Assembly (NCBI GenBank): GCA_016177025.1
Contig: JACOWB010000007.1
Span: 7,751-71,750 of the forward strand
Source of the DNA: Candidatus Aenigmatarchaeota archaeon
GTDB taxonomy: Archaea; Aenigmatarchaeota; Aenigmatarchaeia; CG10238-14; SCSR01
Reading direction: 5' to 3'
DNA length: 64,000 bases
In this document: piece by piece, positions 9,885 to 48,673 of the stretch
How positions within the stretch are numbered: position 1 is the first letter of the stretch
Layout: every line of letters starts with the position of its first letter
Notes under the pieces: generated by a model
Told to the model about the DNA's origin: nothing
Seen by the model: the letters and a program-made list of their open reading frames with translations, nothing else
Database searches by the model: none
Program-made: the position numbers and the translations under genes

Positions 9885-10499
9885 ATGCAAAGACTGATAG
9901 AACTGGCTGGCGGGATAGAAAATACAGAACTTAGAAAAAAAGTAATTGAACTGATTAAAAATCCGAAACTGTCTAATACCGATTTTCAGAAATATCCGAA
10001 AGGTGATTTGGAAAAAGTCAAAACGCCTTTCTCTGTAGGTGATATGGGTGTTGTCGTCAGAGAAGTTATCAATCATACTGTGACAAACACGGAATTGTGC
10101 TGGCAGATCGCAGATACTTTTGAGAAAAATTATGGTGTGAAAGTGAATAGGGATGTTTTGATTGCAGGTTCATTGTTGCATGATATAATGAAGGTGTACG
10201 AATGGAAAATTGATGAGGAAGGTGACCCTATTCCTACCGGACTAACAATGGATCATGTTTTTCTTGGTGTAGCTGAATTATATGCAAGGGGATTCTCCGA
10301 GGAAATAATACATGTGGTTGCAGCCACTCAAGGTGAACGGACACCACCTAAAAGTTTGGAGGCATTAATTTTGCATTATGTTGACACTCTGACCTCGTTG
10401 ACGGAGTTTTTCACAGGAGCTAGGCATAAGAAACCTCAGACGCCTGTCATTGTTCTAGATGAGGAGACTTTCAAGAAAATGAAGGAAGAAAAGGATTAG
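9885..10499 (+). CDS. HD-domain metal-dependent phosphohydrolase
   Basis: 204 aa. H...LLHDIMK, then MDH and HYVD, give the H-HD-H-D spacing of the HD superfamily. Confidence 0.7.
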   Translation: MQRLIELAGGIENTELRKKVIELIKNPKLSNTDFQKYPKGDLEKVKTPFSVGDMGVVVREVINHTVTNTELCWQIADTFEKNYGVKVNRDVLIAGSLLHDIMKVYEWKIDEEGDPIPTGLTMDHVFLGVAELYARGFSEEIIHVVAATQGERTPPKSLEALILHYVDTLTSLTEFFTGARHKKPQTPVIVLDEETFKKMKEEKD

Positions 10500-10948
10500 T
10501 TGTCTTTCAATTCATGAATTGCTTTTCTAAGCTTTTTATTCAGATCTTCATTGTCTGTATATAATATTATTTCACATTTTGTTGTTTCTTTGAAACCGCG
10601 ATACATTAAACCTGATAACGAATTTGTATCAAAATCCTTATGTGGAACTATAATAATTGGCTTCTTTAATATCGCTGCCATCCCTAAAACTATGTTTGTA
10701 CCAATTCCTCTGCAGGGGTGGATGGCTAGCAACAAGTCGGATGTTTTTAGTTCGTTAGTTAATTTTTCGAATACGGTTTTTGGGTTGTATGTGACTCTAC
10801 CCCATTGAAGAAAATCTCTGTATGTTATATAAGTTGAAAATTTCAGTTTTTTCAGAATAGAATCGACATAATTTATCAGTTTAATTAGCTCCTCTTTATC
10901 TTCAGGATAATGTGAATGTGTTAACGGTGCTGTTATATAAACCTTCAT
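10496..10948 (-). CDS. nucleoside 2-deoxyribosyltransferase-like (NDT/DNPH1-fold) protein, paralog 1
   Basis: 150 aa. KVYITAPLT N-terminus, YRDFLQWG, TSDLLLAIHP and GIGTNIVLGMAAILKKPIIIV. It aligns end to end with the 14109-14567 protein. It has Val where paralog 2 has Glu. Confidence 0.65.
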   Translation of the reverse strand: MKVYITAPLTHSHYPEDKEELIKLINYVDSILKKLKFSTYITYRDFLQWGRVTYNPKTVFEKLTNELKTSDLLLAIHPCRGIGTNIVLGMAAILKKPIIIVPHKDFDTNSLSGLMYRGFKETTKCEIILYTDNEDLNKKLRKAIHELKDN

Positions 10949-10991: not shown

Positions 10992-12086
10992 ATGGAAATA
11001 ATTGAAGATACTATTAAACCTGCTGTAGAATTTTTCAAAATAATGAAGAGGGGAAGTAAAGTTGCCATAGTTCATGGTCATGATAATGACAGTATCTGTT
11101 CTGCGGCTATAATATACAAATTGTTGAAAATTGTACATAAGACTGAAGCGAGATTGATTGTATCTGGATTAAATTCTGCGGTCACGGAAGATGCTATAGA
11201 AAAAATCAAAAAAATCAAACCCGACTATGTAATCATAGTGGATATATCCGATGTTCCTGTAAGTATTTTGACAGAACTTAGAAACATTTCACAAGTAATG
11301 ATTATAGATCACCACGTACCAAAAGGTTATGTTAAGATAATATACGTGAATCCGAGAGTTTTTGACAGGGAAATTTATTTGCCCGCGACTTATCTTTGCT
11401 ACAAAATTTACGAAAAGTTTTTGGATGTGGAAAAAATTCTCTGGATATCTGGCATTGGAACACTGTCTGATATGGGAATGAAAAATTGCAGTGACCTGTT
11501 TGAAAGTATCAAATCAAACGACAAAGAACTGATTGGAAACAATGAAAACATAGATGAAATTTTGTTTGATAATTCTTTACTTGGCAAATTGGCGAAGATG
11601 TTTGACAGCGGTAGAGTTGTTGTGGGTATTGATGGTTCTGTATCGGCGTTGAATGTCTTGCTTAAATCGGAAAACTATCAGGAAGTCTTACAAGGAAAGT
11701 ACGGAAGTAAAAACTTGTTGGGATGGTATTCTGTCTCAGAGAAGGAATTCAACCGACTTGTGAAAGATTTTGAGAAAAAGAAGAAACGGATTAAAAGATT
11801 TGTGATGTATGAAGTAAAGTCGAAGTATAATATGAAATCTCCGCTGGCTACTTATTTGTCTAAGATTCTTACGAACGAAGTTCTTGTGATATATCAGAGG
11901 TCTGGAAAGTACATCGATGTCAGTTTCAGGAGAGGGAAGGTTTGTATTGTGGATTTGAACCAGCTGGCTGGAAATTCTGTCAAGGATATACCAGACTCGA
12001 ATGGCGGTGGGCATATTCAGGCGGCAGGTGCGAGGTTTCCGGCCCGCTATTTAGACAGATTTCTGAGAAATTTAAAGTCTAAGTAG
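10992..12086 (+). CDS. DHH/DHHA1-family phosphoesterase (NrnA/RecJ-like)
   Basis: 364 aa. Motifs HGHDNDSICSA, IIVDISD, IIDHH and GTLSDMG, plus the DHHA1 motif GGGHIQAAGA. Confidence 0.85.
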   Translation: MEIIEDTIKPAVEFFKIMKRGSKVAIVHGHDNDSICSAAIIYKLLKIVHKTEARLIVSGLNSAVTEDAIEKIKKIKPDYVIIVDISDVPVSILTELRNISQVMIIDHHVPKGYVKIIYVNPRVFDREIYLPATYLCYKIYEKFLDVEKILWISGIGTLSDMGMKNCSDLFESIKSNDKELIGNNENIDEILFDNSLLGKLAKMFDSGRVVVGIDGSVSALNVLLKSENYQEVLQGKYGSKNLLGWYSVSEKEFNRLVKDFEKKKKRIKRFVMYEVKSKYNMKSPLATYLSKILTNEVLVIYQRSGKYIDVSFRRGKVCIVDLNQLAGNSVKDIPDSNGGGHIQAAGARFPARYLDRFLRNLKSK

Positions 12087-12250: not shown

Positions 12251-12448
12251 ATGAAATGCTTCCGATGCGGCTCATTTAGGATGATAAGATTTATAGACGG
12301 GTTCGGATCAAGAAGAATTTTCTGTAGAGGATGTTCAGGAAGTTTTCTGGATGCTTCAATCATCAGTCAGGAACAGACAAGGTTGCCTCACTTTAACACT
12401 TACTATAACAAAAGAGCGATAATTAGGCACTTTTCAAGGAGGGATTAA
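12251..12448 (+). CDS. small zinc-ribbon protein
   Basis: 65 aa with CxxC-x17-CxxC (MKCFRCGS...FCRGCSG). A hairpin (12230-12249) lies just upstream of the ATG. Confidence 0.45.
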   Translation: MKCFRCGSFRMIRFIDGFGSRRIFCRGCSGSFLDASIISQEQTRLPHFNTYYNKRAIIRHFSRRD

Positions 12449-12708: not shown

Positions 12709-14058
12709 TCAATAAGTACTTCCTTTGCTTGATGCTGCACCTTCTGGTTGAGAACGATCTATTCTAGTTCCCATTCTGATTGCACCACCTATTACATAAA
12801 ATAATGCTGAAGTTGGATGTTCTATATGTTGTCCTTCGTAAGGTCTCATTGTATTGGCTGGTGTATGAAATTCCGAATCGGGTCTGAAGACTTCGTAAAG
12901 TATTCCATAAGCAGTTTTGTCATTGAATTGCATTTGCTCAAAATCCGGAGTTCCAACATGTAAGTAGGTTTCAACTCTAAAATCTTGCATCATTTGTTCC
13001 AAATAATGTAAAGTTATGTCATCTTCGCCCATGAACTGGGGTGTGTAATTTCCAACAAAAGAATATCTGTTGCTAACACCCACTGTTGCTAAAACAAATT
13101 TATTACCATCGACGTAAAAATCATAACCAAACCTGACTAATCTGTTCCTATTTGATGACACAGCTTGAAAAAGCGCTTTCCCTTGCGGTATCCCTTCATC
13201 TTCTGTAGTATGATGTCTTCCTATACTACCTCCAGCTATAATAAGATCTGACTTACTACGTCTGGCTAACATTCTTTGATGATCTGCGAATCTTGCGAGA
13301 TACGGTCTGTCTAATGGTGATGATAACTCTATTGATGATTCGCCACTACCATCGAGATTTACCATGCAGCCAAGTGTGGCTTCACCATGTGAAGTAATTA
13401 AGTATGCTCTCCTCGGTTCCAACGGTTCTCCGCCTATTCCTTGCGATCGTCTCGCTTTCCGTTGTCTTTCTGCGTTTGCCAATGCTTTGAATACGTCCTC
13501 GACTCTATGATGAAGATCTGCTAAACTGTCACCATACGGGATAGAGCCTGGTGTCCGAAAACGTTCGAATGGAGCGGACAGTAGAAGTATATCTTCACCT
13601 CTGCTGGAGGCATATTCAGTTAAATAATCACTTATGCCGCTCTTTATTTTTTCAGATATTTCGATGTCGCGATTATTAAGTAATCCTTCTGTATCAAAAT
13701 AAAGATGTATAGTTGGTCTCTCTGATTTCCTTACAGCTGCTACAGTCACAACTTTACCGAAACCTATTGCAGAACAACCTGTTTCAAAAGTGGGTTCACC
13801 TCTTTCTTGAATCAGTCTATTAATTTGACCTCCCATTTCCCTGCCAGTTTCTCCCCATGCATCATCTTCATTAAAGTTATTTATGGTCACATCTGCTGCG
13901 AGACCGGCGTGTGTTTTCATTTGTTCAACACCACCATGGCCAAGCAAAAATTTACTATGTTCACCTTCAGCTATTGGTGGAGAAAATAATCTTAACAAAT
14001 CCGTAGAGGAGTTTCTGCCATCTAATTCTGGATTTTTGATAATAACTTCGGTAGACAT
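12709..14058 (-). CDS. orphan protein E of the candidate system (449 aa, function unknown)
   Basis: Long ORF and last gene of the minus-strand operon. Lys-poor (14/449) and rich in Arg/Gly/His. No P-loop, TM helix, signal peptide or Cys cluster recognised. Confidence 0.8.
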   Translation of the reverse strand: MSTEVIIKNPELDGRNSSTDLLRLFSPPIAEGEHSKFLLGHGGVEQMKTHAGLAADVTINNFNEDDAWGETGREMGGQINRLIQERGEPTFETGCSAIGFGKVVTVAAVRKSERPTIHLYFDTEGLLNNRDIEISEKIKSGISDYLTEYASSRGEDILLLSAPFERFRTPGSIPYGDSLADLHHRVEDVFKALANAERQRKARRSQGIGGEPLEPRRAYLITSHGEATLGCMVNLDGSGESSIELSSPLDRPYLARFADHQRMLARRSKSDLIIAGGSIGRHHTTEDEGIPQGKALFQAVSSNRNRLVRFGYDFYVDGNKFVLATVGVSNRYSFVGNYTPQFMGEDDITLHYLEQMMQDFRVETYLHVGTPDFEQMQFNDKTAYGILYEVFRPDSEFHTPANTMRPYEGQHIEHPTSALFYVIGGAIRMGTRIDRSQPEGAASSKGSTY

Positions 14059-14108
14059 AAAATTCCTACATTCAGGTTTTAGAAAGATATCTTCTAATAT
14101 TTAAAAGC

Positions 14109-14567
14109 TTATTGTTTGATACCGTCAAGTTCTTCTCTTAGTTTTGTTCTAAGATCCATTATGTCCTTGAATTTGATTATTTTCGAGTTCGCAACACCGC
14201 TTAATCCAGAATGCATAACACTAATTCTTTCTTTTTCGTTTATAAGGATCAGAATTTTTTTCTTGAATGCCGATGCCCATCCTAGCTCTATGTTGACGCC
14301 AACACTTTGCTCTGGATATGCAATTAATAAATCAGAACTTTGAAGTTCAATCATAGATTTTTTACCTACTTCATGCTCATCTATGTTAGCTGTACCCCAT
14401 TTATGCAAATCTCTATGTGGAAGAAATGTTTGAAATCCTTGCTCCCTCGCTACGGACTCGATAGAATCTAAAAAATTTATGTAAGAAATATCTGTTATTT
14501 CTCCGTGGTGTGCGCTACTCTGCGTGGATGATTTGCTTGTATATGGTGCGGCTATGTATGCTTTCAT
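14109..14567 (-). CDS. nucleoside 2-deoxyribosyltransferase-like (NDT/DNPH1-fold) protein, paralog 2
   Basis: 152 aa. KAYIAAPYT, HRDLHKWG, SSDLLIAYPE and GVNIELGWASAFKKKILIL. The Glu in NIELG sits at the position of the NDT/DNPH1 catalytic Glu. Confidence 0.7.
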   Translation of the reverse strand: MKAYIAAPYTSKSSTQSSAHHGEITDISYINFLDSIESVAREQGFQTFLPHRDLHKWGTANIDEHEVGKKSMIELQSSDLLIAYPEQSVGVNIELGWASAFKKKILILINEKERISVMHSGLSGVANSKIIKFKDIMDLRTKLREELDGIKQ

Positions 14568-14571
14568 TTAA

Positions 14572-15204
14572 TCATTCTTTCGGATTTAATTCACCATCAA
14601 AATCTCTAAAAAGAATAGGGGGCAGATATTCCACATATTGTCCTGATATACCGGCTCTAACCAATCTATCAGTCAACTTGTTAAATTCATCGCGGTCGTT
14701 TGAGGAGGCTCTTATTCTTATCCCCTGCCCGACTTGGATAGCATAATTGACTATTCTGGACTGGTGTTCGTCATTTTCTAACAGGTCACTCAAATCAGAC
14801 ACAAATCTCGGTGTAAGCCTTTGGTCGAGTGGTCTGCCGAAAAACCATCTGTGATAATAAGCATTTAGCTCATCTCGAGTTAGAACTTGGCCGTTTTCAT
14901 TTCTAAATCCGTTTGACGATATAACTCGTGTTATCTCTGCTGGCGGATTTCCATTATAAAATGCCCTCAGATACTGGGCTGGTGGATCGTTTCTTACTAC
15001 AAAAATTCCTGTGACTGTTTGAAAAGAATCGGCCGCATCAAGCAGTCTGAGATCGGGATAGCTTTCTGGATGCTCTATGAAAGGCTGGGAATATACGCCC
15101 AGCGCATCTCTTAAAGTCAATCCTTCTGATGGCCGTAAATATCCTACCCCAATAAACAGCCTAGGATTTTTTTCGTCTGTGCCTTTTTGTGTTTCCTCTG
15201 CCAT
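14572..15204 (-). CDS. orphan protein C of the candidate system (210 aa, function unknown)
   Basis: The ATG overlaps the stop of the upstream gene by 1 nt (TAATG). Lys 4/210. No motif recognised. Confidence 0.75.
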   Translation of the reverse strand: MAEETQKGTDEKNPRLFIGVGYLRPSEGLTLRDALGVYSQPFIEHPESYPDLRLLDAADSFQTVTGIFVVRNDPPAQYLRAFYNGNPPAEITRVISSNGFRNENGQVLTRDELNAYYHRWFFGRPLDQRLTPRFVSDLSDLLENDEHQSRIVNYAIQVGQGIRIRASSNDRDEFNKLTDRLVRAGISGQYVEYLPPILFRDFDGELNPKE

Positions 15205-16076
15205 TAAGAATCACCTATAGTAACATGGTTCCCGAGTCTTGAAGATCCGCCAAGAACATCTAATCTCAGACTGACTATTTGAGGCTGTGGAATAATCACA
15301 CCTGCACGAGCGGCCAAGTCTGGTATGTCATTCCTAACTGAGCTTACTTTAGATGCGATGCGCTTAACATAAGGAGACAAGATTTCAACGAAGTACTCAA
15401 ACCCAGGCATTGTCAAGTATCTTACTGGTCCGTATGGCACACCGTCCGGAGTAGGATAAAGTAGATCAAACGTTTCTGGATCATGCAAGAATCTCAATCC
15501 ACTAACATTTGCAAGACCGTAAGTCGAACCATCGGTTGACGTTTGGAGAGCAACATGACCTGCGTTAAGCCTGTCGTGATATTGACCTGTAAAAACATTT
15601 GTAACTGCGGAAATTCCTGTGGTAGGGCCGGGATTTAACATGTCTTCTCCGACAACTAGGAGAGGCGTGGGTCGTGAAAAGTCTGACCTTGAGGAGTAAT
15701 TGTTGTGTGACAATCTTCCTCTTCTATGACCATGCGGGTCTCCGCTACTTTTCATTTCCAGTGTGCCGACATAAACATGACTCATCAACCTCTGCATTTG
15801 ATCTAAAAATTCTGGGCTGCCTTCTGGGGCTTCAATATATCTGGCAAAATCCTCTTCTCCAACGCCGTGTATGGAAGGTGGAGCGTATCTAAGAGATATT
15901 AATGTTTGCTTTCTTCCGCCATGGCTCACTCCCACGAATTTTGGGTATTCCGGTTTTTCGGGATTGTGGTACTCTTCCATAAGCTCCTCAAGATCCCTTC
16001 CTTCTCTTCTTCTAGTCTGCGGAGATATATCGCTACTTGCTTCTCTCAAGATTTTGATGAAATTATACCATATCAT
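15204..16076 (-). CDS. orphan protein B of the candidate system (290 aa, function unknown)
   Basis: Starts 7 nt after the wHTH gene. No Cys and Lys 7/290. It shares a short motif with protein E (PKFVGVSHGGRKQ versus SKFLLGHGGVEQ). Confidence 0.75.
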   Translation of the reverse strand: MIWYNFIKILREASSDISPQTRRREGRDLEELMEEYHNPEKPEYPKFVGVSHGGRKQTLISLRYAPPSIHGVGEEDFARYIEAPEGSPEFLDQMQRLMSHVYVGTLEMKSSGDPHGHRRGRLSHNNYSSRSDFSRPTPLLVVGEDMLNPGPTTGISAVTNVFTGQYHDRLNAGHVALQTSTDGSTYGLANVSGLRFLHDPETFDLLYPTPDGVPYGPVRYLTMPGFEYFVEILSPYVKRIASKVSSVRNDIPDLAARAGVIIPQPQIVSLRLDVLGGSSRLGNHVTIGDS

Positions 16077-16083
16077 ATTACCA

Positions 16084-17019
16084 TCATTGTTCCAATATTA
16101 CAGCATCGTCTATTATCATATCACTATCTTTATCAAAGCCTTGTACCACGAAGTTAAAATTTCCTTTATTACTAAAGTTTAAACCATTATCTAAAAGCTT
16201 GAAAATAGAGATAATTGCTGACCTAATGCCTCTTGTTCTGATACCGCCTATAACAAGAATCATTTTATCTTTATTGAACGGGTTTGGATATTTTACTATT
16301 AACCCGCATCTATCATCTTTGTAACTTTTTCCGGTTGATTTCGACATTATGGAATTCTTTTCCAAGTCAAAATATAACGGTAAATGAGAGTTTATTTTAT
16401 CGATAATCGCATTTGTTTTATTATTTCCGATTAAAATTAAATTGTCTTTAAGTTCATGATCTCTTATTTCTGTATCTAATTTATAATTTGCTTTTTCCAA
16501 AGATTTTAAAAATCTCCCGATTAGTAACATCAAATCTATTGTGTGTGATCCTTCTGTTCCCCCTATATTGTATTTTCCGTGTGGTGAAGGATCGCCTATA
16601 ATGATTTTTGCGTTTAGTTTTCCGTCCGTAACGAATGGGGAAAAAAATTCAGAAATGTTCACAGGCATTTGAAACGTATCATCATCTTTAATTTTCATAC
16701 CTCTATCGTGCAATTTGGCGGCTATGACAGGTGATACAACACTATAAATCTTGGCAGTCATTCCATGTCTTTTTTCGGTTGAAATTGTGTAAATTATACC
16801 GGCCTTCTCTAACTTCTTCGTATGGTAGTAAACCTTTTGCTCGTGTATTTTTAACTTTCTGGAAATGTCGATTGCTGAAATCGGCGCTTCTGCCAAAGTT
16901 TTGACAATTTTCAAAGCGAGTTTGCTGCTCAAAGCGGATAAGGCCTTCGGATCACTTAAAATTAAAGAATCGTATGCGACTCTTCCATTTCCGTCATTCT
17001 CTATCAAAGTTGCTTGCAT
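16084..17019 (-). CDS. ArsR-type winged-helix transcriptional regulator with an uncharacterised ~200-aa C-terminal domain
   Basis: 311 aa. LALKIVKTLAEAPISAIDISRKLKIHEQKVYYHTKKLEKAGIIY is a wHTH. The C-terminal half carries no motif I recognise. It is the first gene of the operon. Confidence 0.75.
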   Translation of the reverse strand: MQATLIENDGNGRVAYDSLILSDPKALSALSSKLALKIVKTLAEAPISAIDISRKLKIHEQKVYYHTKKLEKAGIIYTISTEKRHGMTAKIYSVVSPVIAAKLHDRGMKIKDDDTFQMPVNISEFFSPFVTDGKLNAKIIIGDPSPHGKYNIGGTEGSHTIDLMLLIGRFLKSLEKANYKLDTEIRDHELKDNLILIGNNKTNAIIDKINSHLPLYFDLEKNSIMSKSTGKSYKDDRCGLIVKYPNPFNKDKMILVIGGIRTRGIRSAIISIFKLLDNGLNFSNKGNFNFVVQGFDKDSDMIIDDAVILEQ

Positions 17020-17205
17020 TATCTCACTTACTAATTTCTTTATAGAATAACCTTAAATGTTATGGTTTTTTCTATAATAGTGTGAATTTTCTTATAAAAA
17101 GATATATAAATGCTTTATGGTTTGCGAGAGGATAGAATAGATTCTACAAATTTTGTTATAAGAGTTGCTTATATACCCGCGTTCTAATGTTTCAAACAGA
17201 TTGAA

Positions 17206-39751: not shown

Positions 39752-40846
39752 ATGAAAGGACTCGTTTTATCAGGCGGTAAAGGCACTAGACTCAGACCGA
39801 TAACGCACACGATCAATAAACACTTGATACCATTGGCAAACAAGCCCATGATACACTATCCTATAGAGACTTTGAGAAACGCTGGCATAACTGATATAGG
39901 AATCATAGTCGGCCATACTGAAGAGAAGATAAAGGAGATTAAAAATGCTATAGGAGACGGTTCCCAATTCGGGGTGAAGGTGACTTATATAGAGCAGGAT
40001 GTCCCAGGAGGACTGGCGCACGCTGTAAAGGTTGCTAAAGAGTTTTTAATGACAGACAACCCAGACAAGAAATTTATTTTGCACTTGGGCGATAACATTG
40101 TCAAAGGCGGCATTAAGAAATATGTTGAAAGTTTTGAAAACGGCGATATGGATTCCATAATTCTACTAAAAGACGTTCCCAATCCTTCAAGATTCGGAGT
40201 AGCTGAAATAAAAGACGGGAAAATTGTCAGACTTGTGGAAAAACCAACAGTGGCACCAAATAACTTTGCTTTGGTCGGGATATACATGTTTAACGACTCG
40301 ATTTTTGATCCTATAGAAAATCTGAAACCTTCATGGAGAAATGAATTGGAAATAACCGACGCTATACAGGGACTGATAGACAGTGGAAAGAAGGTTGTTC
40401 ATCATATAATTGATGTCGAATGGTGGAAAGATCCTGGCGACACCGAAGGCATATTGGAGGCCAACAGTCTTTTGCTTGATGATATTATCCCCTTCAATAA
40501 GGGTACCGTAGAGGAGGGTGCCGTCATAATAGGTAAAGTCGGCATTGATGAGGGAACAATTATAAAAAGCGGAAGTTCGGTTAAAGGACCTGCGCTAATC
40601 GGTAAGAATTGCGTAATAGGCAAAAATGCATATATCGGGCCGCATACGTCAATAGGAAACAATACAGTAATAGAAAATGCTGAAATCGAGTCTAGCGTAA
40701 TTATAGGCGATTCAAAAATTAGCTGTAAACAGCGGATTATAGACAGTTTGATAGGGCGTAATGTAACCATATCAGAAGCATCTGAAAACTTACCGAGAGG
40801 TGCCTCCCAGCTTGTTGTCGGAGAACATTCCGTTGTCAAAATTTAG
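39752..40846 (+). CDS. sugar-1-phosphate nucleotidylyltransferase with a C-terminal beta-helix (RmlA/GlmU/ST0452-like)
   Basis: 364 aa. KGLVLSGGKGTRLRPITHTINKHLIPLANKPMI, then hexapeptide repeats. Confidence 0.88.
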   Translation: MKGLVLSGGKGTRLRPITHTINKHLIPLANKPMIHYPIETLRNAGITDIGIIVGHTEEKIKEIKNAIGDGSQFGVKVTYIEQDVPGGLAHAVKVAKEFLMTDNPDKKFILHLGDNIVKGGIKKYVESFENGDMDSIILLKDVPNPSRFGVAEIKDGKIVRLVEKPTVAPNNFALVGIYMFNDSIFDPIENLKPSWRNELEITDAIQGLIDSGKKVVHHIIDVEWWKDPGDTEGILEANSLLLDDIIPFNKGTVEEGAVIIGKVGIDEGTIIKSGSSVKGPALIGKNCVIGKNAYIGPHTSIGNNTVIENAEIESSVIIGDSKISCKQRIIDSLIGRNVTISEASENLPRGASQLVVGEHSVVKI

Positions 40847-40887
40847 GCTATAGTCAAAGCTTTAAAATTTACTGTCAATGTTAAACT

Positions 40888-42057
40888 ATGGGAAAAATTA
40901 AAATCATGCATATAGCAAAGGGATTCCCGCCTGATATGGGAGGAATAGAAAGTTACACTTACGAATTAGCCAATGCCTTCAAAAACAAATATGATGTCCA
41001 CGTTTTAACCACCCACTCAAAACTTTCATCATCGAATGAAATCGACGGAATAAAAGTGACTCGAGTTAAAAAGATTTTTGATTTCTTACACGCTCCCATT
41101 AATCTGCCATTTTTTAATAAAATCAATCAAATAAACCCAGAAATAATACATTTTCATATACCAAACCCTTTAAGCGAATTGTATCTCTTATTTTACCTCA
41201 TGTTTAAAAAAAATCAAAAAGTTATCGCGACTTATCATGCAGACATACCTGATTACACGCCTTTACACAAGGCCATCATCTTTTTAAGACAATTCTATAT
41301 GCATTTTCTCATGAAATTTTTTGATGCCGTAATTGTTACCAGTGATGACTACATTTCTGAATCTAAAATTCTAGAAAAATTCAATGAAAGACTTAAAGTT
41401 ATACCAATTGGAGTCGATACGGATCTTAAGACATTCTCGGTAAATAAATTAAAAAAACAGTATAAAATTAAAAATGAAAAAATTGTTCTTTTTGTAGGGC
41501 GGTTATTCCCCTATAAAGGTATAGAATATCTGATTTCTGCGATCCCCATGATAATCAAGCATTACCCAGATGTAAGGTTTGCTATAGTCGGGGGTGGAGA
41601 AAAGGAAGCAGAGTTGAAAAAGCTGGCTGAGAATCTGAAAATAGACGACAAGGTTATCTTTACAGGCAAAGTCGATAACAAAACGAGAAACACATTTTAT
41701 AAGATCTGTGACGTATTCGTTTTACCCAGCATCAATCGTGGCGAGGCATTTGGCATATCTTTATTGGAGGCAATGAGCTTCGGCAAACCTCTGATAACGA
41801 CTAGAATAAAAGGCAGTGGAGTGAATTTTATAAATAAACATCCGACCACAGGCCTGGTAGTAGAGCCAGCTGACTCAAACCAACTAGCACTCGCAATAAC
41901 CAGATTGTTGACAAATGATGAACTTAGGGAAAGAATGGGCAGAAATTCCAAGAAAAGGTTCTTAAAGTTCTTTACAAAAGACATAATGCTTTCAACAACT
42001 GAAAAATTATATAAAACTGTATTAAACAAAGGTGTCTTAAATGAAAAAAATACTTAA
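40888..42057 (+). CDS. GT-B glycosyltransferase (family 4 type)
   Basis: 389 aa. GGIESY N-terminus, and an EAFGISLLEAMSFGKPLITT E-x7-E region. Confidence 0.85.
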   Translation: MGKIKIMHIAKGFPPDMGGIESYTYELANAFKNKYDVHVLTTHSKLSSSNEIDGIKVTRVKKIFDFLHAPINLPFFNKINQINPEIIHFHIPNPLSELYLLFYLMFKKNQKVIATYHADIPDYTPLHKAIIFLRQFYMHFLMKFFDAVIVTSDDYISESKILEKFNERLKVIPIGVDTDLKTFSVNKLKKQYKIKNEKIVLFVGRLFPYKGIEYLISAIPMIIKHYPDVRFAIVGGGEKEAELKKLAENLKIDDKVIFTGKVDNKTRNTFYKICDVFVLPSINRGEAFGISLLEAMSFGKPLITTRIKGSGVNFINKHPTTGLVVEPADSNQLALAITRLLTNDELRERMGRNSKKRFLKFFTKDIMLSTTEKLYKTVLNKGVLNEKNT

Positions 42058-42610
42058 TGCCGGCTGCGGAGAAAACACATACGGAACACATTTTGTTGAC
42101 AAATACCCGCTGAGGCCAGAAATAAAGAAATGCGATCTAGATTGTGAAAAATTGCCTTTTAAGGACAATTTCTTTGACGAGGTCGTCGGTATTAATGTCC
42201 TAGAGCATTTAACAAACATGGGGTTTGCATTAAAGGAATTGCACAGGGTTATGAAAAAAGGAGGCAAACTAATTCTACAGACAGATAATGCGAATTACTG
42301 GGGTTATGCAATAAGCAAGAGTCATTTAGGAGGGTATGAAGACAGGGATTATTTTAGAAGCAGCGGCGGCGACAAGCACTACGCACTTTTTACAACACAT
42401 CATTTGTGGAATCTCGCAAAAAAAGTAGGGTTTAAGAATATTAAAGTCGGGTATGTTAAAGAAAGCCCCGAAGGATCTTACGTGAGGAGCAATTTACGTT
42501 TTCAAAATATCAGGAAATTAGCTAAATTGATTGCATGGGCAGCCCTTTCCACAATCCCACCATTGTATAGAATGAAGTACGGGAGCTTGAAATTAGAATG
42601 CGTGAAATAA
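42041..42610 (+). CDS. class I SAM-dependent methyltransferase
   Basis: 189 aa. LNAGCG motif I, and FDEVVGINVLEHL. Confidence 0.75.
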   Translation: MKKILNAGCGENTYGTHFVDKYPLRPEIKKCDLDCEKLPFKDNFFDEVVGINVLEHLTNMGFALKELHRVMKKGGKLILQTDNANYWGYAISKSHLGGYEDRDYFRSSGGDKHYALFTTHHLWNLAKKVGFKNIKVGYVKESPEGSYVRSNLRFQNIRKLAKLIAWAALSTIPPLYRMKYGSLKLECVK

Positions 42611-42621
42611 GGATGATTTAA

Positions 42622-43155
42622 ATGAAAAATATTGAAATACACTCTTCTGCACAAGTCTCGGAAAATGCCGAAATAGGAGATGATACCAAAATCTGGAATA
42701 ATGCGCAGATTAGGGAGAACGCAAAAATTGGCAATAGCTGTGTAATAGGCAAAAATGTTTACATAGACCGAGGAGTAAGAGTAGGAAATAATGTTAAGAT
42801 ACAGAACAATGTTTCTATTTTTTACGGCGTTGAAATAGAAGACGGTGTTTTTGTTGGTCCCCATGTCTGCTTTACCAATGATAAATTACCTAGGTCTATA
42901 ACTCCTGATGGGTCATTGAAAAAATCTGGTGATTGGAAAATTTCGAAAACACTGGTAAAATACGGAGCTTCAATTGGAGCAAACTCTACGATACTGTCTA
43001 ACATAACGATTGGAAAATGGGCAATGGTTGGTGCTGGCGCGGTTGTCACCAAAAACGTGCCAGACTATGGCATTGTTGTCGGCAATCCAGCACACTTGAT
43101 AGGATATGCAAACGAAAAAGGCGAGAAGGTTAAGGAAGTTGAGAGGGGAACCTAA
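42622..43155 (+). CDS. left-handed beta-helix sugar N-acetyltransferase (WxcM/QdtC-like)
   Basis: 177 aa of hexapeptide repeats, with VVGNPA near the C-terminus. Confidence 0.75.
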
Positions 43156-43163
43156 GTCATTAT

Positions 43164-44204
43164 TTAATTAAATCTTATTACATTTCCCGTCTTGTAAGAT
43201 TCTATTGCCTTTAAAGCTATGTGCAATGCGCTCACACCATCTTCTACAGTAACTGGCATCTCAGAATTCGTTTTTACGGCATCTAAAAAAGATCTCAGTT
43301 CAATTCCTAACGGCTCTAATTTAATATCTTCTTGAACAACGCGTGTTTTCGGTTCGAACTTATTTAGAAACTCCTCGAAACTTTCCCATACCATATTTCT
43401 TGTGTCAAGAAAGTTTTCAATAATCTCGATTTTTTGAGATATTGTGTCCACCTTGCAGACATTCTTGGTTCCCACAATATTCATCTCCCTAATTTTAATT
43501 GGCGAAGTCCAGCTTACATTAATTTTTCCTATGACACCATTCTTAAACTTGATTACAATCGTAGCATTGTCTTCTAGTTCTTGCCGAGGTACAATTTTAT
43601 TAGTAGCTACAGCATACATTGTGTCAATTTTGGATCCAATTAGGTGATTCAACAAGTCAATGTCATGTATGGCCAAATCTACGATTATTCCACTGTCCCT
43701 TATTCTCGGTTGGTAAAAAGAGAGGCGATTAGTTTCGATAGAAATCACTTCACCGAACTCACCGTTTTCTAGCATGCTCTTCAAGTGCTTTATCACAGGA
43801 TTAAATCTTTCTATGTGCCCGACCATCAGCTTTAGGTTTTTAGCTCTTACGCCCTTTATAATTTCTTCCGCGTCTGTGATACCATCTGTTATAGGTTTCT
43901 CAACGAAAATATGCACTCCTTTAGCAATGGCACCCATTATTACTTGTTTGTGTTGCATAGTCGGTACAGCAATAGAAACACAATCAAGTTCTTCGTTTTC
44001 TAGCATGTCATTATAGTCGGCGTAAAATTTGCAATTGTATTTGTCTGCAAATTTTCGCTTACTTTCATCAACATCAGAAATTGCCACAAGTTCAGCGTCC
44101 GGAAAGGCTGCAAAATGTCTGACATGGTGCTGGCCCATGCTCCCCACACCTATTACTCCAACCTTTATTTTTTCCATCATATTCAACTGCCTATACCCAT
44201 GCAT
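43164..44204 (-). CDS. Gfo/Idh/MocA-family oxidoreductase
   Basis: KVGVIGVGSMGQHH Rossmann motif and an EKP motif. The true start may be the MMEK codon at 44180. Confidence 0.8.
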   Translation of the reverse strand: MHGYRQLNMMEKIKVGVIGVGSMGQHHVRHFAAFPDAELVAISDVDESKRKFADKYNCKFYADYNDMLENEELDCVSIAVPTMQHKQVIMGAIAKGVHIFVEKPITDGITDAEEIIKGVRAKNLKLMVGHIERFNPVIKHLKSMLENGEFGEVISIETNRLSFYQPRIRDSGIIVDLAIHDIDLLNHLIGSKIDTMYAVATNKIVPRQELEDNATIVIKFKNGVIGKINVSWTSPIKIREMNIVGTKNVCKVDTISQKIEIIENFLDTRNMVWESFEEFLNKFEPKTRVVQEDIKLEPLGIELRSFLDAVKTNSEMPVTVEDGVSALHIALKAIESYKTGNVIRFN

Positions 44205-44334
44205 CTAGTCTTTCTAACATGATTTGAAATGTAAAAGCATTTAAAGAAATGTGGTTCCTCTTCGAACGGCGAACAAATTACCTCTGGATCCTTTTTAAAT
44301 TTATCACTTTAGATAATGTAAGAGGGTTTTCGTA

Positions 44335-45459
44335 ATGATACAGACATGCTCACGATGCGTTTTTAATTCGAATGTGCCAGGAATATCCTTTGATTCAGAG
44401 GGGATATGCACTTATTGTAAAATACATGATCAGCTTGTGGTCGAATACCCTGCTGGCGAAGAAGGTTGGAAAAAACTTGAACAAATCGCCCAAAAAATAA
44501 AAGAAAATGGTAAAAACAAAAAATATGACTGTGTCGTCGGTGTTAGTGGCGGTTGCGATTCGTCGTATACTGTGTATATTGCCAAGAAACTTGGGTTACG
44601 TCCGTTAGCTGTGCATTTCGATAATACATGGAATTCGACTTTTGCAGTGGAAAACATCCATAATCTATTAAAAAAAATGGATGTGGATTTATACACCTAC
44701 GTGATTGATAACGAAGAGTTCAACGATATTTCCAGAGCATTTATAAATGCGGCTGTGCCAGAAATCGACGCCCCTACAGATGTAGCGCTTGCGACAGTTC
44801 TGTATATGGCTGCCGAGGAGCACGGTATAAAATATATATTGAATGGGCATTCGTTTAGGACAGAAGGCATGGGTCCGCCGGGGTGGTTTTATTTTGACGG
44901 TAAATATGTGGACAATGTTCATAAAAAGTTTGGCGAACGTCCAATGAAGACGTATCCCAATCTATGGTTATCAAAATGGCTCAAGTGGATCACAATCAAA
45001 CAAATAAAAACAATACGTCCCCTGTGGTACATAGACCATAATAAAGAAGAAACTAAGGAATTCCTTAAAAACGAGTTTGGCTGGAAGTGGTACGGCGGAC
45101 ACCATATGGAAAACAAGTTCACTTATTTCTGCCATAATTTCTGGTTGCCGAAAAAATTCAACATAGATTTACGTTATGTGGAACTTTCCGCCTTTATAAG
45201 AGCCGGACAAATTACCCGCGAGGACGCCCTTGAGAAACTACAAACTCCACCACCAATAAGCGATGATCTTATTAGCGAGGTTAAGAAGCGTCTTAAATTT
45301 ACGGACGAAAAGTTCGAAGAGATATTAAAAAGGCACAATAAATACCCAAAAGATTATGGCACTTACCATCCAACATTCAAGCGACTGAGGCCTTTCTTTT
45401 GGCTCTTATACAAGGCAAATTTGGTGCCAAAAACATTCTACATTAAATATACAAAATAA
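44335..45459 (+). CDS. N-acetyl sugar amidotransferase (PP-loop ATPase, WbpG/AglX-like)
   Basis: 374 aa. N-terminal zinc ribbon CSRC...CTYC, then the PP-loop VVGVSGGCDSSY. HisH-like and HisF-like genes follow. Confidence 0.85.
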   Translation: MIQTCSRCVFNSNVPGISFDSEGICTYCKIHDQLVVEYPAGEEGWKKLEQIAQKIKENGKNKKYDCVVGVSGGCDSSYTVYIAKKLGLRPLAVHFDNTWNSTFAVENIHNLLKKMDVDLYTYVIDNEEFNDISRAFINAAVPEIDAPTDVALATVLYMAAEEHGIKYILNGHSFRTEGMGPPGWFYFDGKYVDNVHKKFGERPMKTYPNLWLSKWLKWITIKQIKTIRPLWYIDHNKEETKEFLKNEFGWKWYGGHHMENKFTYFCHNFWLPKKFNIDLRYVELSAFIRAGQITREDALEKLQTPPPISDDLISEVKKRLKFTDEKFEEILKRHNKYPKDYGTYHPTFKRLRPFFWLLYKANLVPKTFYIKYTK

Positions 45460-45470
45460 ACAGTGATGTT

Positions 45471-46091
45471 ATGAAAATCGTTATCATTAATTGCGGTGTG
45501 GGAAATGTAGGGTCAGTGAAGAACATGCTTAAGAAAATAGGGCACGAATCTGTAATTTCCGCAGAGATTTCAGATATAGAAAAAGCAGATAAATTAATTT
45601 TTCCAGGAATAGGCGCTTTTGATAGCGGGATGGAAAGGATTGAACAACTTGGTATATTGCCTGTTCTTGAAAAAAAAGTGATTGAAAATAAAACCCCCAT
45701 CTTGGGAATATGCTTGGGAATGCAGTTATTCGGCAAGAGTAGCGAAGAGGGAAAAAAATCTGGCTTGGGATTGGTAGACGCAAATACCATAAGGTTCAGG
45801 TTTGATGACACACAAACAAAGTTAAAAATTCCTCACATGGGGTGGAATACCACTAAGGCTGTTAAAAAGAACCCGTTATTTCTTGATTTGGAAGATGATG
45901 CTAGATTTTATTTTGTGCATTCGTATCATGTAGTTTGTAACAAAAAAGAAGATGTTATAGCAACAACTAACTACGGATCTGATTTTGTCTCCTCTCTCTG
46001 CAAGGAAAATATTTTTGGCGTACAATTTCATCCCGAAAAGAGCCATAAATACGGAATGAGACTTTTGAAAAATTTCGTGGAGGTTGTATAG
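45471..46091 (+). CDS. glutamine amidotransferase subunit, HisH-like (AglY/WbuY-like)
   Basis: 206 aa. FPGIGAF, GICLGMQ (catalytic Cys) and GVQFHPEKS. Confidence 0.88.
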   Translation: MKIVIINCGVGNVGSVKNMLKKIGHESVISAEISDIEKADKLIFPGIGAFDSGMERIEQLGILPVLEKKVIENKTPILGICLGMQLFGKSSEEGKKSGLGLVDANTIRFRFDDTQTKLKIPHMGWNTTKAVKKNPLFLDLEDDARFYFVHSYHVVCNKKEDVIATTNYGSDFVSSLCKENIFGVQFHPEKSHKYGMRLLKNFVEVV

Positions 46092-46095
46092 ACAT

Positions 46096-46857
46096 ATGTT
46101 AGGCACAAGAGTGTTTCCTTGTTTGCTGCTCAGAAATTCTTCGCTAGTCAAAACAATAAAATTTGAAAATCCTCGATATATTGGCGACCCGATAAATACT
46201 GTCATCATTTATAATGAGAAGGAAGTGGATGAATTGGTTTTCCTTGACATAACAGCCACAACAGAAAATAGAAAACCAAACTTCCAAACCATCTCTGAAA
46301 TAGCCAGCGAATGTTTCATGCCTTTCGCTTACGGAGGAGGAATCAAAACTTTAGACGATATAAAGCAGACTATAAATTTGGGTGCTGAGAAAGCTGTTAT
46401 TAATACACAAGCGATTAAACGCCCACAATTCATAAAAGACGCCGCGAGCTTTTTTGGAAGCCAAAGCGTTATTGTAGCAATCGACATTAAGAAAAACCAT
46501 CTCGGAGAATATAGGGTATATTCTCACAGCGAAAAGAAACTTACTGGACTTGATCCTGTTGAATTCGCTGTTCAGATGGAGAATCTTGGGGCAGGCGAGA
46601 TTTTTTTGAATTCCGTTGACAGAGATGGGACCATGGAAGGTTATGATTTGGAACTGATAAAAAAAGTTTCTGAACCATTGAACATACCAATCGTTGCGTG
46701 CGGAGGAGCCGGCAATATAAAAGATATTGGTGCCGCGATTAAAGCTGGAGCGTCGGCTGTCGCAGCAGGTAGCATATTTATCTATCAGGGAAAAAACAGG
46801 TCCGTGTTAATTAATTTCCCAACCAAAGAAGAGCTGAAGGAAGTCTTAGAAACATAG
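46096..46857 (+). CDS. HisF-like cyclase/synthase subunit (AglZ/WbuZ-like)
   Basis: RVFPCLLL..., DELVFLDI, GGGIKT and ACGGAGN fit a (beta/alpha)8 HisF pattern. Confidence 0.88.
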   Translation: MLGTRVFPCLLLRNSSLVKTIKFENPRYIGDPINTVIIYNEKEVDELVFLDITATTENRKPNFQTISEIASECFMPFAYGGGIKTLDDIKQTINLGAEKAVINTQAIKRPQFIKDAASFFGSQSVIVAIDIKKNHLGEYRVYSHSEKKLTGLDPVEFAVQMENLGAGEIFLNSVDRDGTMEGYDLELIKKVSEPLNIPIVACGGAGNIKDIGAAIKAGASAVAAGSIFIYQGKNRSVLINFPTKEELKEVLET

Positions 46858-46866
46858 GTCATATAG

Positions 46867-47979
46867 ATGAAAATTTGTTTTTTAGCTGACGGGAGCAGAA
46901 AAGGCGGAGTCTTTATTCGAGAATGGATAAACTATTTTGTCAAGAATCATGAATTATCTTTGGTAACGTTCAATAAGCCAAGTGGCATAGATGAACGCGT
47001 TGATACGCATTACATACCTAGAATTGAAACAGGAAAATTGATGAAAACACTTAGTTTGCCGAACTTTATATTGAAGTTCAGGGGGCTGATAAAAAAAATA
47101 AATCCGGATATATTGTATGCTCATTATGTGTTGCATTACGGCTTAGCTGGAGCACTAAGCGGATTTCATCCTTTCGGATTGAGCCCTTTAGGAAGCGATA
47201 TAGCAACTGTTCCAGACAGAGCGCAAATATTTAGATATGCAACCACTTTTGCCTTGAAAAAGGCCGACCTGATACAAGTCCAAGACTTATTGAGTGCTGA
47301 AAGAGTGATGGAGCTTGGCGCCGATGAAAGAAAGATTTCGGTAATACCTTGGGGCGTGAATTTAGAAAAATTCAAAACTAGAAAAGTCGAAAAGGAATAC
47401 GATGTCATAAATGTCAACCGCTACAATGCAGACACCTTCATAAAAGCTATATCCATCGTGAAAAATGACATACCCAATATCAAAGTCCTTTGGTTAGGAG
47501 TAAAGGGAGAACATCATTTAATCGACTTGTTGAAAAAATTCGATGTCTTGAAAAATGTAAAGTTAGAAAGTTTTGTCAACAACCAAGATATCCCCAAGTA
47601 TTTATCGAAAGCTAGAATTTTTGTGGACGGTTTTTACCCCGGACATGATAAAGGAGGTCACAGCTATGGTGTTGCGCTTCACGAGGCTATGGCTTGCGGC
47701 ATACCAACAATCGTAGCCAACAGGCAGGAAATCTATAAATTGAAAGGAAAAAACAAATGGTATTTTGGCTGGACTTTCGATGGGAACAGGCACGAAGATT
47801 TAGCAAATAAGATAATATCCTTGTTAGAAAACGATGGCGAAAAAAAGAAAATCAGCAGAAAAAACAGAGAAATTGTCGAAAAAAGATTTAACTTCTCTAA
47901 AAACATGGAAAAAATAGAAAATGAGATGGAAAGGATAGTTGACAGTTATAAACAAAAGTCTTTAGACAAGGGAGAATAA
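46867..47979 (+). CDS. GT-B glycosyltransferase
   Basis: 370 aa with a C-terminal GT1-type domain (YGVALHEAMACGIPTIV). Confidence 0.75.
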   Translation: MKICFLADGSRKGGVFIREWINYFVKNHELSLVTFNKPSGIDERVDTHYIPRIETGKLMKTLSLPNFILKFRGLIKKINPDILYAHYVLHYGLAGALSGFHPFGLSPLGSDIATVPDRAQIFRYATTFALKKADLIQVQDLLSAERVMELGADERKISVIPWGVNLEKFKTRKVEKEYDVINVNRYNADTFIKAISIVKNDIPNIKVLWLGVKGEHHLIDLLKKFDVLKNVKLESFVNNQDIPKYLSKARIFVDGFYPGHDKGGHSYGVALHEAMACGIPTIVANRQEIYKLKGKNKWYFGWTFDGNRHEDLANKIISLLENDGEKKKISRKNREIVEKRFNFSKNMEKIENEMERIVDSYKQKSLDKGE

Positions 47980-48010
47980 TTTTTAAATACGTTAACATCA
48001 GGTTAAGATT

Positions 48011-48673
48011 ATGTTTCAATACCCAGAGCCAAACAAAGAAAAAATGTTCAAGAATCTCTTTGACAGAGAAAAATACAAAAATATACTGGATGTCGGTGCG
48101 TCAGTTTTTACCATAAATCTTTTGAAAAAATATTTTCCCGATGCATCTATTCAAGGCATTAATATAGAAATAATTCCTAGAGACAAAATACCAGAAATAA
48201 CTCTGGGAAATGCCGAAAGCTTGGCGTTCAAAGACAATTCTTTCGACCTAATCTTTAGTGTAGAAACTCTAGAGCACGTTATTTATCCAAATAAATTTAT
48301 CGAAGAAGTTAAAAGAGTTCTCAAACCAGGCGGAGATATAATCTTGGATACACCGAATTTGAATTCATGGTCCAATAGAATCTTAATGATGTTGGGATTT
48401 CCACCTACGAATTATACACCCTATCCGGGAAAAACTCCAGGTGTTCCTAAAATATTCGGGACATCCCCTGTATGGGATCATCCAAGAGTATTTCCTTACA
48501 GGTCATTAAAGGAAATCTTCAATTCAAATGGATTCAAATTGAAAAGAATTATGGGTATAAATAAAACAGATAAAGATACTTCTTTCAGAAAATTACGATT
48601 CATAGTAGAGAAGTTGACCCCACAATCTTGGCACGAGATTACGGTACTTAAAGCAACCATTGAAAAAAAGTAG
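48011..48673 (+). CDS. class I SAM-dependent methyltransferase
   Basis: 220 aa. ILDVGAS, FDLIFSVETLEHV and LKPGG. Confidence 0.78.
   Translation: MFQYPEPNKEKMFKNLFDREKYKNILDVGASVFTINLLKKYFPDASIQGINIEIIPRDKIPEITLGNAESLAFKDNSFDLIFSVETLEHVIYPNKFIEEVKRVLKPGGDIILDTPNLNSWSNRILMMLGFPPTNYTPYPGKTPGVPKIFGTSPVWDHPRVFPYRSLKEIFNSNGFKLKRIMGINKTDKDTSFRKLRFIVEKLTPQSWHEITVLKATIEKK

Follow-up and report, generated by a model that had tools for sequence, protein, structure and literature searches.

Positions 12709-17019 of a 64,000-nucleotide window of archaeal DNA (Candidatus Aenigmatarchaeota archaeon, assembly GCA_016177025.1, contig JACOWB010000007.1; the window is the whole stretch analyzed) carry five closely packed genes, A to E, all on the minus strand. 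We propose, with a probability of roughly 0.4, that this locus is a regulator-coupled, variable metabolic island that occupies a fixed site in one clade of the Aenigmatarchaeota (DPANN archaea) and serves nucleotide or phosphoribosyl pyrophosphate (PRPP) chemistry together with imidazoleglycerol-phosphate chemistry; the pathway-level reading taken as a whole is about as likely. The island is bounded by the winged helix-turn-helix (wHTH) regulator gene A and by a nucleotide-turnover block composed of a DHH phosphoesterase gene, a paralog of the nucleoside 2-deoxyribosyltransferase (NDT)-like gene D and an HD phosphohydrolase gene. On profile and residue-level comparison, gene E (12709-14058, 449 aa) is a tandem, head-to-tail duplication of a whole imidazoleglycerol-phosphate dehydratase (IGPD) module. 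The initial annotation of this DNA had recognized no family signature in B, C or E; this still holds for B and C, which remain unplaced, but not for E, which is a double IGPD.

Several profile searches place the C-terminal half of E in the IGPD family. Pfam reports an IGPD match at residues 278-361 (35.9 bits, gathering score 27; E 1e-8), and residues 214-367 match both the NCBIfam HisB models (E about 3e-11) and IGPDs in the PDB (E 8e-5). The best NCBIfam score, 43.5 bits, is far below every HisB equivalog cutoff (189-443 bits), and the name HisB is therefore not warranted. In a first alignment of E and its homolog to the IGPD domain of E. coli HisB, residues 216-448 and 30-217 of E each covered the whole module. 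Comparison in hhalign of the E family, represented by four double proteins, with the IGPD family, represented by five single IGPDs, gave a probability of 98.2% (E 4.7e-14) for the C-module and 95.8% (E 7.5e-9) for the N-module. The N-module (residues 1-217, 13408-14058) is thus assigned as IGPD-like from hhalign and the residue map described below, and the C-module (residues 216-449, 12709-13413) from Pfam, NCBIfam, PDB, hhalign and the same map.

The active site was mapped onto E from the IGPD2 of A. thaliana. According to its description (PMC4509728), Mn1 is coordinated by H47, H74, H169 and E173 and Mn2 by H73, E77, H145 and H170; the phosphate site comprises Q51, H55, K177, R99 and R121 together with S199 and K201 of the essential C loop; E21 and E173 are the acid/base residues; and a figure legend places Q51, H55, K177, E21 and E173 on one chain. 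All 16 functional residues are recovered in E, split between its two modules. The N-module retains equivalents of E21, H47, Q51, H55, H169, H170, E173 and K177 and has lost H73, H74, E77, R99, H145 and the C loop, whereas the C-module retains equivalents of E21, H73, H74, E77, R99, R121, H145 and the C-loop S199/K201 (within SSKG), has lost H169, H170, E173, K177, Q51 and H55, and carries an insertion of ~37 aa. Each of the eight Mn ligands occurs once per E polypeptide: H41/42, H183, H184 and E187 in the N-module and H282, H283, E286 and H351 in the C-module. The phosphate-site equivalents are Q46, H50 and K191 in the N-module and R309, R331, S444 and K445 in the C-module, the last two in the C loop; the equivalents of the acid/base residue Glu21 are E11 and E226. 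Because the two modules have lost complementary catalytic sets, together they hold exactly one complete IGPD-type site. The ligands are divided in the same way in the relatives P0002 and L025, at 49-50% identity to E, and in the L023 protein, at 27% identity. We infer that each polypeptide has kept one complete site through the fusion and that the reciprocal pseudo-site has decayed, and we consider E very likely to be an IGPD-type dehydratase.

Known IGPDs are single modules of ~190-220 aa that assemble into homo-24-mers, each chain contributing to several active sites and each site drawing on two chains, and their known fusions are to histidinol-phosphatase. E resembles these enzymes (HisB/HIS3/HISN5; PF00475; EC 4.2.1.19) in that both of its halves are homologous to the whole module and in that it carries the eight Mn ligands, the phosphate residues, the catalytic glutamates and the S-K motif of the C loop once each. 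It differs from them as a 449-aa fusion of two modules with complementary ligand loss, in which half of the pseudo-symmetric sites would be dead, as well as in its paucity of Lys, its ~37-aa insertion and its partner, an NDT-type gene instead of his genes. Gene elongation has been described in histidine biosynthesis, where HisA/HisF and the IGPD half-domains arose by internal duplication (PMC7284861); E is likewise a tandem duplication and fusion of a histidine-pathway module whose copies then diverged, except that here the already duplicated whole IGPD module appears to have been duplicated again and subfunctionalized into complementary pseudo-subunits. In the literature searched, we found no description of a natural fusion of two IGPDs whose dead and live half-sites complement each other. 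E has one non-self match among 5.8 billion protein clusters. Proteins identical to E and C are recorded in a 'Candidatus Aenigmarchaeota archaeon' MAG (metagenome-assembled genome; HYS62_00700 and HYS62_00710) and in several groundwater read sets, and the source record annotates E as 'hypothetical protein'.

Gene D (14109-14567) encodes an NDT-superfamily nucleotide N-glycosidase-like enzyme of the MilB/BlsM/DNPH1 type, as the initial annotation had proposed, noting a Glu at the catalytic-Glu position. D passes the Pfam Nuc_deoxyrib_tr model (PF05014) marginally, with 29.4 bits against a cutoff of 28.8, and its best PDB matches are BlsM (5vto, E 1.6e-11) and the CMP/hmCMP N-glycosidases 4jen and 4jem (E 3e-9 to 2e-8). 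The segment GVNIELGWASAF aligns with GTH(V/I)EIGWASA, so that E94 takes the place of the catalytic Glu in E(I/L)GWAS. In MilB, E103 is the catalytic Glu, Asp78 binds ribose, Ser97 and Gly99 bind phosphate and Glu62 binds cytosine, and the family carries the motif F-L-(G/A)-(G/A)-P-F-(R/K/M) (PMC4081090). D79, S88 and G90 of D align to Asp78, Ser97 and Gly99. The family motif reads Y-I-A-A-P-Y-T in D, a mapping of the N-terminal region made by motif only, and the Glu62 position appears to be His or Lys in an alignment with BlsM and BcmB; because both deviate, D is not a CMP/hmCMP enzyme by these criteria. D therefore resembles MilB, BcmB, BlsM and DNPH1 (Rcl), its best matches, in length (~150 aa) and in the catalytic, ribose and phosphate residues, but lacks the cytosine-recognition residues and does not lie in an antibiotic cluster. 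From work on MilB F17Y, Tyr at the first aromatic position is reportedly the state of 2'-deoxy-specific enzymes, and the Tyr of D at the position of MilB Phe17 hints by analogy at a 2'-deoxy substrate. On these alignments, D is somewhat more probably than not a nucleotide N-glycosidase.

We also considered D as a missing histidinol-phosphate phosphatase, given its hisB/hisC-type neighbors and the known hisN gap: this step and PR-ATP pyrophosphatase are the commonest unexplained gaps in histidine pathways. This candidate was set aside as unlikely, since the N-glycosidase apparatus of D is kept and HAD-type candidates lie nearby in sister genomes; we know of no proposal of an NDT-type enzyme for either step.

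The second NDT-like gene of the window (10496-10948, minus strand, 150 aa) encodes a paralog 33% identical to D (E 4e-23). It has Val in place of the catalytic Glu (GTNIVLGMA) and is probably a catalytically altered or binding-only protein. It lies between plus-strand genes for a DHH/DHHA1 phosphoesterase (10992-12086) and an HD phosphohydrolase (9885-10499), both identified by Pfam, and overlaps the 3' end of the latter by 4 nt. This DHH/paralog/HD block keeps its synteny in L023, L025 and L027 and is partly present in L024 and L026.

Eight loci were recovered when genomes were scanned with a D profile. Across five Aenigmatarchaeota MAG loci (L023-L027) the gene order is fibrillarin - AsnC - A - [slot] - D - IGPD-like gene - variable genes - DHH - D paralog - HD, although one or more of the five gave no match for AsnC, the D paralog or HD. 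An IGPD-family gene directly follows D in the window and in L004, L023, L024, L025, L026 and L027, and a gene for a single-type IGPD converges on D in L018. The IGPD is double in L025 and L023 and a single module of ~200 aa in L024, L026 and L027, while D itself stays 72-75% identical across these genomes (59% in L026; 72-80% in the relatives compared pairwise with D), which points to replacement of the IGPD gene in situ. L001 retains A-B-C and is missing both D and the IGPD gene. The varying IGPD type beside a conserved D, together with this joint absence, argues for functional coupling of D with IGPD activity. Outside this clade, a distant D homolog (43% identity; L030, 9636-13775) in another Aenigmatarchaeota MAG follows a gene for a small HTH protein and has no IGPD, which indicates that the D-IGPD pairing is specific to the closer clade; the genes after it resemble SufC/SufB/SufD by eye only.

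These comparisons modify the view of the locus as an orphan five-gene operon. The tight packing stands, and the genes are linked across genomes: homologs of B and C lie beside A in L001/L002/L003/L005, with D alongside in L007 and L018, and D and E are adjacent in L004 and L025. The unity of the five was overstated. Judged by synteny, the conserved unit is D plus an IGPD-family gene, and B and C fill a slot between A and D in which other proteins can take their place. In every genome this slot holds one or two Lys-poor open reading frames (ORFs), of different families, and its proteins diversify far faster than the flanks. The window lineage has B and C; a second family is represented by L023_263 and L025_266; a third, L023_155 and L026_149, has a weak Pribosyltran match (E 0.011); and a fourth, L024_153 and L027_151, comprises true type I phosphoribosyltransferases (PRTs; Pfam E 1.2e-4; hhalign 85%, E 6e-6), whose best NCBIfam matches are the archaeal orotate phosphoribosyltransferase (OPRT)-like and GfcR regulator families. 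A further slot protein, L026_196, contains the PRPP-loop-like segment AVILDDWVGYTGQA.

Other neighbors of the D-IGPD pair also have metabolic relatives. On a short MAG contig, a gene for a HisC-type aminotransferase (L028, 1258-2355, minus strand; 274.5 bits to TIGR01141, cutoff 276.55) converges on the D homolog, HAD-type phosphatase genes lie downstream of the IGPD gene in L023 (12579-13259) and L026 (11735-12370, minus strand), and the gene downstream of the IGPD gene in L025 (12469-13326) encodes a PfkB kinase closest to ribose-1-phosphate kinases. The intact IGPD-type site, these HisC, HAD and PfkB neighbors and the DHH/HD/NDT block together point to small-molecule metabolism involving nucleotides, PRPP and imidazoleglycerol phosphate. 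In the window, a 65-aa Cys-rich, zinc-ribbon-like ORF with a weak DUF7685 match (12251-12448, plus strand) converges on E, and is conserved in L025 (12047-12271, minus strand; MRCVRCSSFRMIKFVDGFGQKRIFCRGCSGSF...).

The slot proteins of the window, B (15204-16076, 290 aa) and C (14572-15204, 210 aa), are Lys-poor orphans with no match in Pfam, NCBIfam, PADLOC, PHROGs or PDB sequences. Five relatives of B were recovered, two non-self matches by a word-indexed search of 5.8 billion clusters and three by exhaustive HMMER search of 1.84 billion representatives, which also returned one spurious repeat protein; a genome scan with the B profile found nothing. The word index gave no non-self match for C in the 5.8 billion clusters. 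C is translationally coupled to B (TAATG), and its three homologs, in L001, L007 and L018, occur only beside B. Because both proteins are conserved in independent contigs, B and C are real genes.

Two segments of B recall type I PRTs. A pyrophosphate (PPi)-loop motif of the G-x-HGG type, PKFVGVSHGGRKQ, lies at residues 45-57, and a PRPP-loop-like motif, PLLVVGEDMLNPGPTT, at residues 138-153 (VLFIVDDMVNPGPTT in P0009), following the order and rough spacing of the PPi and PRPP loops. In hhalign, residues 135-186 of B are placed on the PRPP loop of the E. coli enzymes Hpt, Gpt and Apt (E 0.0074 at best; E 0.015 against a profile of five PRTs; probabilities 3-5%), while the control proteins (12 unrelated ones in one count, 17 in another) gave E values of 0.11 or worse. 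With PRTs and PRT-fold regulators (PF00156; GfcR and archaeal OPRT-like NF045507/NF002620; PyrR, PurR), B appears to share an acidic pair and a T-T/G loop after a hydrophobic strand, and, as in combined HTH and PRT regulators, it adjoins an HTH element, here the separate gene A. It differs in its length of 290 aa, with long extra segments, and in reading VVGED instead of VVDD/VVED after the strand. We regard a PRT fold for B as a tentative assignment, at a little under even odds.

Other proposals for B and C were discarded. A match of C to the GNAT protein ElaA (E 0.13 with a three-sequence profile) disappeared with a four-sequence profile, and C has no Pfam match to this family. Compared with E. 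coli HisG, HisD, HisC, HisH, HisA, HisF and HisI, neither B nor C gave anything better than E 0.042. The initial annotation had read a short shared motif as a hint of distant paralogy between B and E; BLASTP gives E = 2.1 for this pair, B reaches E = 0.55-0.68 when compared in hhalign with the IGPD and E families, and the motif segment in E is a degenerate IGPD 'DHML..Q' helix, so that the proposal falls.

Gene A (16084-17019) encodes an ArsR/HTH_20-type wHTH regulator, as predicted (Pfam HTH_20, E 4e-7; HTH_5, E 2e-6), followed by a C-terminal domain of ~200 aa that has no PDB sequence match; residues 174-270 have a weak S_layer_C match (25.9 bits, cutoff 23.9). Every relative has A as a conserved gene on the flank, and in L023-L027 it is 55-59% identical and neighbors fibrillarin and AsnC. 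Whichever family occupies the slot, the end of A abuts or overlaps its first gene in 5/6 genomes; since B, C and D are in turn packed within 4 nt, an A-B-C-D operon is plausible. Upstream regions of seven genomes were compared side by side. The D-E spacer (14059-14108, minus strand) contains the element GCTTTTAAATATTAGAA...TTTCTAAAAC (TTTC(A/T)AAAC), ~40 nt upstream of the E start codon and nearly identical in the window, L004, L025, L023 and L024 despite the different IGPD types downstream. It resembles an archaeal B recognition element (BRE)/TATA box, and E therefore probably has its own, putative internal promoter. Upstream of A, an inverted repeat, TTCTATAA-N6-TTATAGAA, located ~130 nt from the gene in L001, L023 and L025 and degenerate in the window (17140-17164, minus strand), and a conserved TATA-like box (~17090-17115) form a candidate operator and promoter.

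The remaining measurements of the initial annotation were reproduced: the coordinates and lengths of the five ORFs; the junctions of 7 nt (A/B), a 1-nt TAATG overlap (B/C), 4 nt (C/D) and 50 nt (D/E); the Lys counts (A 34/311, B 7/290, C 4/210, D 14/152, E 14/449); the G+C counts of 25/60 at 13021-13080 and 12/60 at 16381-16440; and the three D motifs, found at residues 2, 77 and 90. A motif check of the translations of B, C and E likewise found no P-loop, GxGxxG, CxxC motif or transmembrane-like segment. The sharp compositional contrast it had reported is real but confined to the amino-acid level. The ratio K/(K+R) is 0.24 in B, 0.17 in C and 0.29 in E, against 0.685 ± 0.14 for the 57 long ORFs of the window, the lowest values among credible genes; they stay low in every homolog found (0.14-0.42), and A, D and the flanking genes do not share the anomaly. 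G+C at third codon positions (GC3) is not raised (B 0.36, C 0.34, E 0.26; mean 0.38), which assigns the anomaly to amino-acid usage and not to DNA background or foreign DNA composition. Recent horizontal transfer is not supported as its cause, given the GC3 values, the persistence of the trait across homologs and the lack of donor-like homologs among 1.84 billion representatives. In sister genomes, the genes that separate the IGPD-like gene from DHH likewise contain little Lys compared with the flanks (K/(K+R) 0.20-0.50), so that lysine avoidance marks the whole variable island except D.

Taken together, we propose the following scheme. E would be a Mn-dependent dehydratase with one IGPD-type site per polypeptide, and its substrate would be imidazoleglycerol phosphate or a heteroaryl-glycerol phosphate very similar to it. 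D would hydrolyze the N-glycosidic bond of a nucleoside 5'-monophosphate to yield the base and (deoxy)ribose 5-phosphate, the base not being cytosine since the recognition residues differ. B may be a very divergent, PRPP-binding protein of type I PRT fold that either re-attaches a base to PRPP or, by analogy with GfcR, PyrR and PurR, senses PRPP or nucleotides together with A; C would be its obligate partner. A, co-transcribed with B-C-D, would regulate the island, and E would be expressed from its own promoter. A bolder version, which we think unlikely, is that D, the doubled IGPD and the PRT-like or orphan slot proteins constitute an undescribed route that couples nucleotide/PRPP turnover to imidazoleglycerol-phosphate chemistry in purine-auxotrophic DPANN archaea. 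Such a route would take the form of a non-canonical entry into histidine-type biosynthesis or disposal of its by-products (for example, cleavage of the AICAR ribotide by D), or of the synthesis of a new azole nucleotide.

Several points weigh against the metabolic-island proposal. The activities of all the proteins are predicted from sequence. In E, the H47 equivalent of the N-module is offset by one residue, and an E21 equivalent is present in both modules, the N-module one being absent in L023, which makes this assignment less clean. The assignment of each metal ligand to a chain is putative, drawn from helix neighborhood and the general structure of the enzyme. E and all the IGPD-like genes of the clade score far below the NCBIfam HisB equivalog cutoffs (43-126 bits against 189-443, with the single-module relatives at 99-126 bits). 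Part of the D-IGPD adjacency could derive from the shared ancestry of close relatives. For B, none of the six family members matched Pfam or NCBIfam models even at E <= 10, and a PDB profile search gave no PRT; the hhalign match to PRTs spans only ~40 columns (E 0.007-0.015); and AlphaFold2 models built from three and then six sequences had pLDDT values of 29.7 and 32.7, with no usable fold. C has no family placement in any search. Finally, no source of imidazoleglycerol phosphate was found, the 64-kb window and the five 20-kb loci containing no hisG/A/I/D/C, and the contig beyond the window ends showed no his or salvage genes.

A HisH/HisF-like pair in the window (45471-46857) was considered as a source of imidazoleglycerol phosphate for E and rejected, as these are WbuX/HisH/AglZ-HisF2 genes for acetamidino modification of glycans. 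The run 44335-46857 encodes a WbuX N-acetyl-sugar amidotransferase (255 bits against 203), a HisH-type glutaminase and AglZ/HisF2 (361 bits against 310). It lies in a cluster (39752-48673) with genes for a nucleoside-diphosphate (NDP)-sugar transferase, GT4 glycosyltransferases, methyltransferases, a hexapeptide acyltransferase and a GFO/IDH/MocA oxidoreductase, which is a glycan acetamidino-sugar cluster and not a his operon. It is flanked by two STT3-type oligosaccharyltransferase genes (59858-61471, minus strand, and, beyond the window end, L031 11189-13306) and by more glycosyltransferase and methyltransferase genes. An archaeal histone gene lies just outside the window.

The strongest competing explanation is plain housekeeping, in which E and the single IGPDs are the hisB of ordinary histidine biosynthesis and D, B and C are unrelated neighbors held together by inherited synteny. 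E keeps every canonical IGPD substrate-contact residue, its promoter-like spacer suggests a transcription unit of its own, and the locus is chromosomal and syntenic, amid ribosomal, fibrillarin and Nop genes; the HisC-type gene beside D in L028 and the HAD phosphatases near the IGPD gene in L023 and L026, possible histidinol-phosphate phosphatases, would also suit it. Archaeal his genes are often scattered, which softens the absence of hisG/A/I/D/C noted above without removing it. The low HisB scores also count against this explanation, as does the paucity of Lys in E, shared with B, C and the slot genes and not with the core genome. It fits poorly, too, with the apparent in situ replacement of the IGPD gene by a very different type while D is conserved and with the joint absence of both from L001. 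DPANN MAGs, including an Aenigmarchaeota MAG, have in addition been reported unable to make histidine, and DPANN MAGs are reported to lack nucleotide synthesis as well (PMC8091004). We judge the housekeeping explanation rather unlikely.

Less probable still, and in our view doubtful, is a small pathway for a modified nucleoside or an azole-type natural product or signal, in which D would free a base or sugar phosphate, B or its slot analogues would ribosylate an unusual heterocycle, E would dehydrate the side chain and C would tailor the product, a sequence of steps that we find equally doubtful. The closest characterized relatives of D (BlsM, MilB and BcmB) act in nucleoside-antibiotic pathways, the genes are narrowly distributed and lineage-specific, and the slot diversifies fast, as expected if substrate specificity changes. 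The island is tiny, however, and lacks typical tailoring, export or resistance genes, no homologous cluster has been described, and the substrate-contact residues of E are unchanged from canonical IGPDs, which argues against a new substrate.

Of the two hypotheses of the initial annotation, the metabolic one, a nucleoside- or nucleobase-type pathway, fits better, and defense was not borne out by PADLOC or the viral contigs. NDT-like and PRTase-like effectors occur in retrons and other defense systems, the hypervariable slot between conserved flanks, the only defense-like trait of the locus, recalls defense hot spots, and B and C are orphans. Even so, a module whose NDT-like and PRT-like proteins respond to infection by depleting or modifying nucleotides is very improbable, as PADLOC-DB v2 has no match for B, C, D or E (and A matches only through a generic wHTH, the Csa3/CasR HTH region), PHROGs yields nothing for B, C and E and a weak NDT match for D, 2.9 million viral contigs contain no relatives of B or D, the neighborhood is free of nucleases, ATPases, sensors and mobile-element genes, the core pair includes a metabolic dehydratase with a seemingly intact active site, and the flanks are housekeeping genes in stable synteny. 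A viral or mobile origin was rejected on the same viral-contig and PHROGs results and on the lack of an integrase or transposase nearby.

IGPD, a target of herbicides, is a textbook case of an enzyme with a single function, and the double IGPD would be a natural experiment on how a multi-chain active site is built. Even if E proves to serve ordinary histidine biosynthesis, its annotation as a hypothetical protein is corrected. B, C and the proteins that replace them in the slot belong to orphan families restricted to a few groundwater archaea, with lysine avoidance conserved; should the undescribed route be true, B and C would found new enzyme families, and lysine avoidance would be a functional adaptation to a reactive intermediate. 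The repeated pairing of IGPD-family genes with an NDT-type nucleotide glycosidase, in archaea considered incapable of histidine or nucleotide synthesis, points to metabolism that reconstructions of DPANN archaea have missed.

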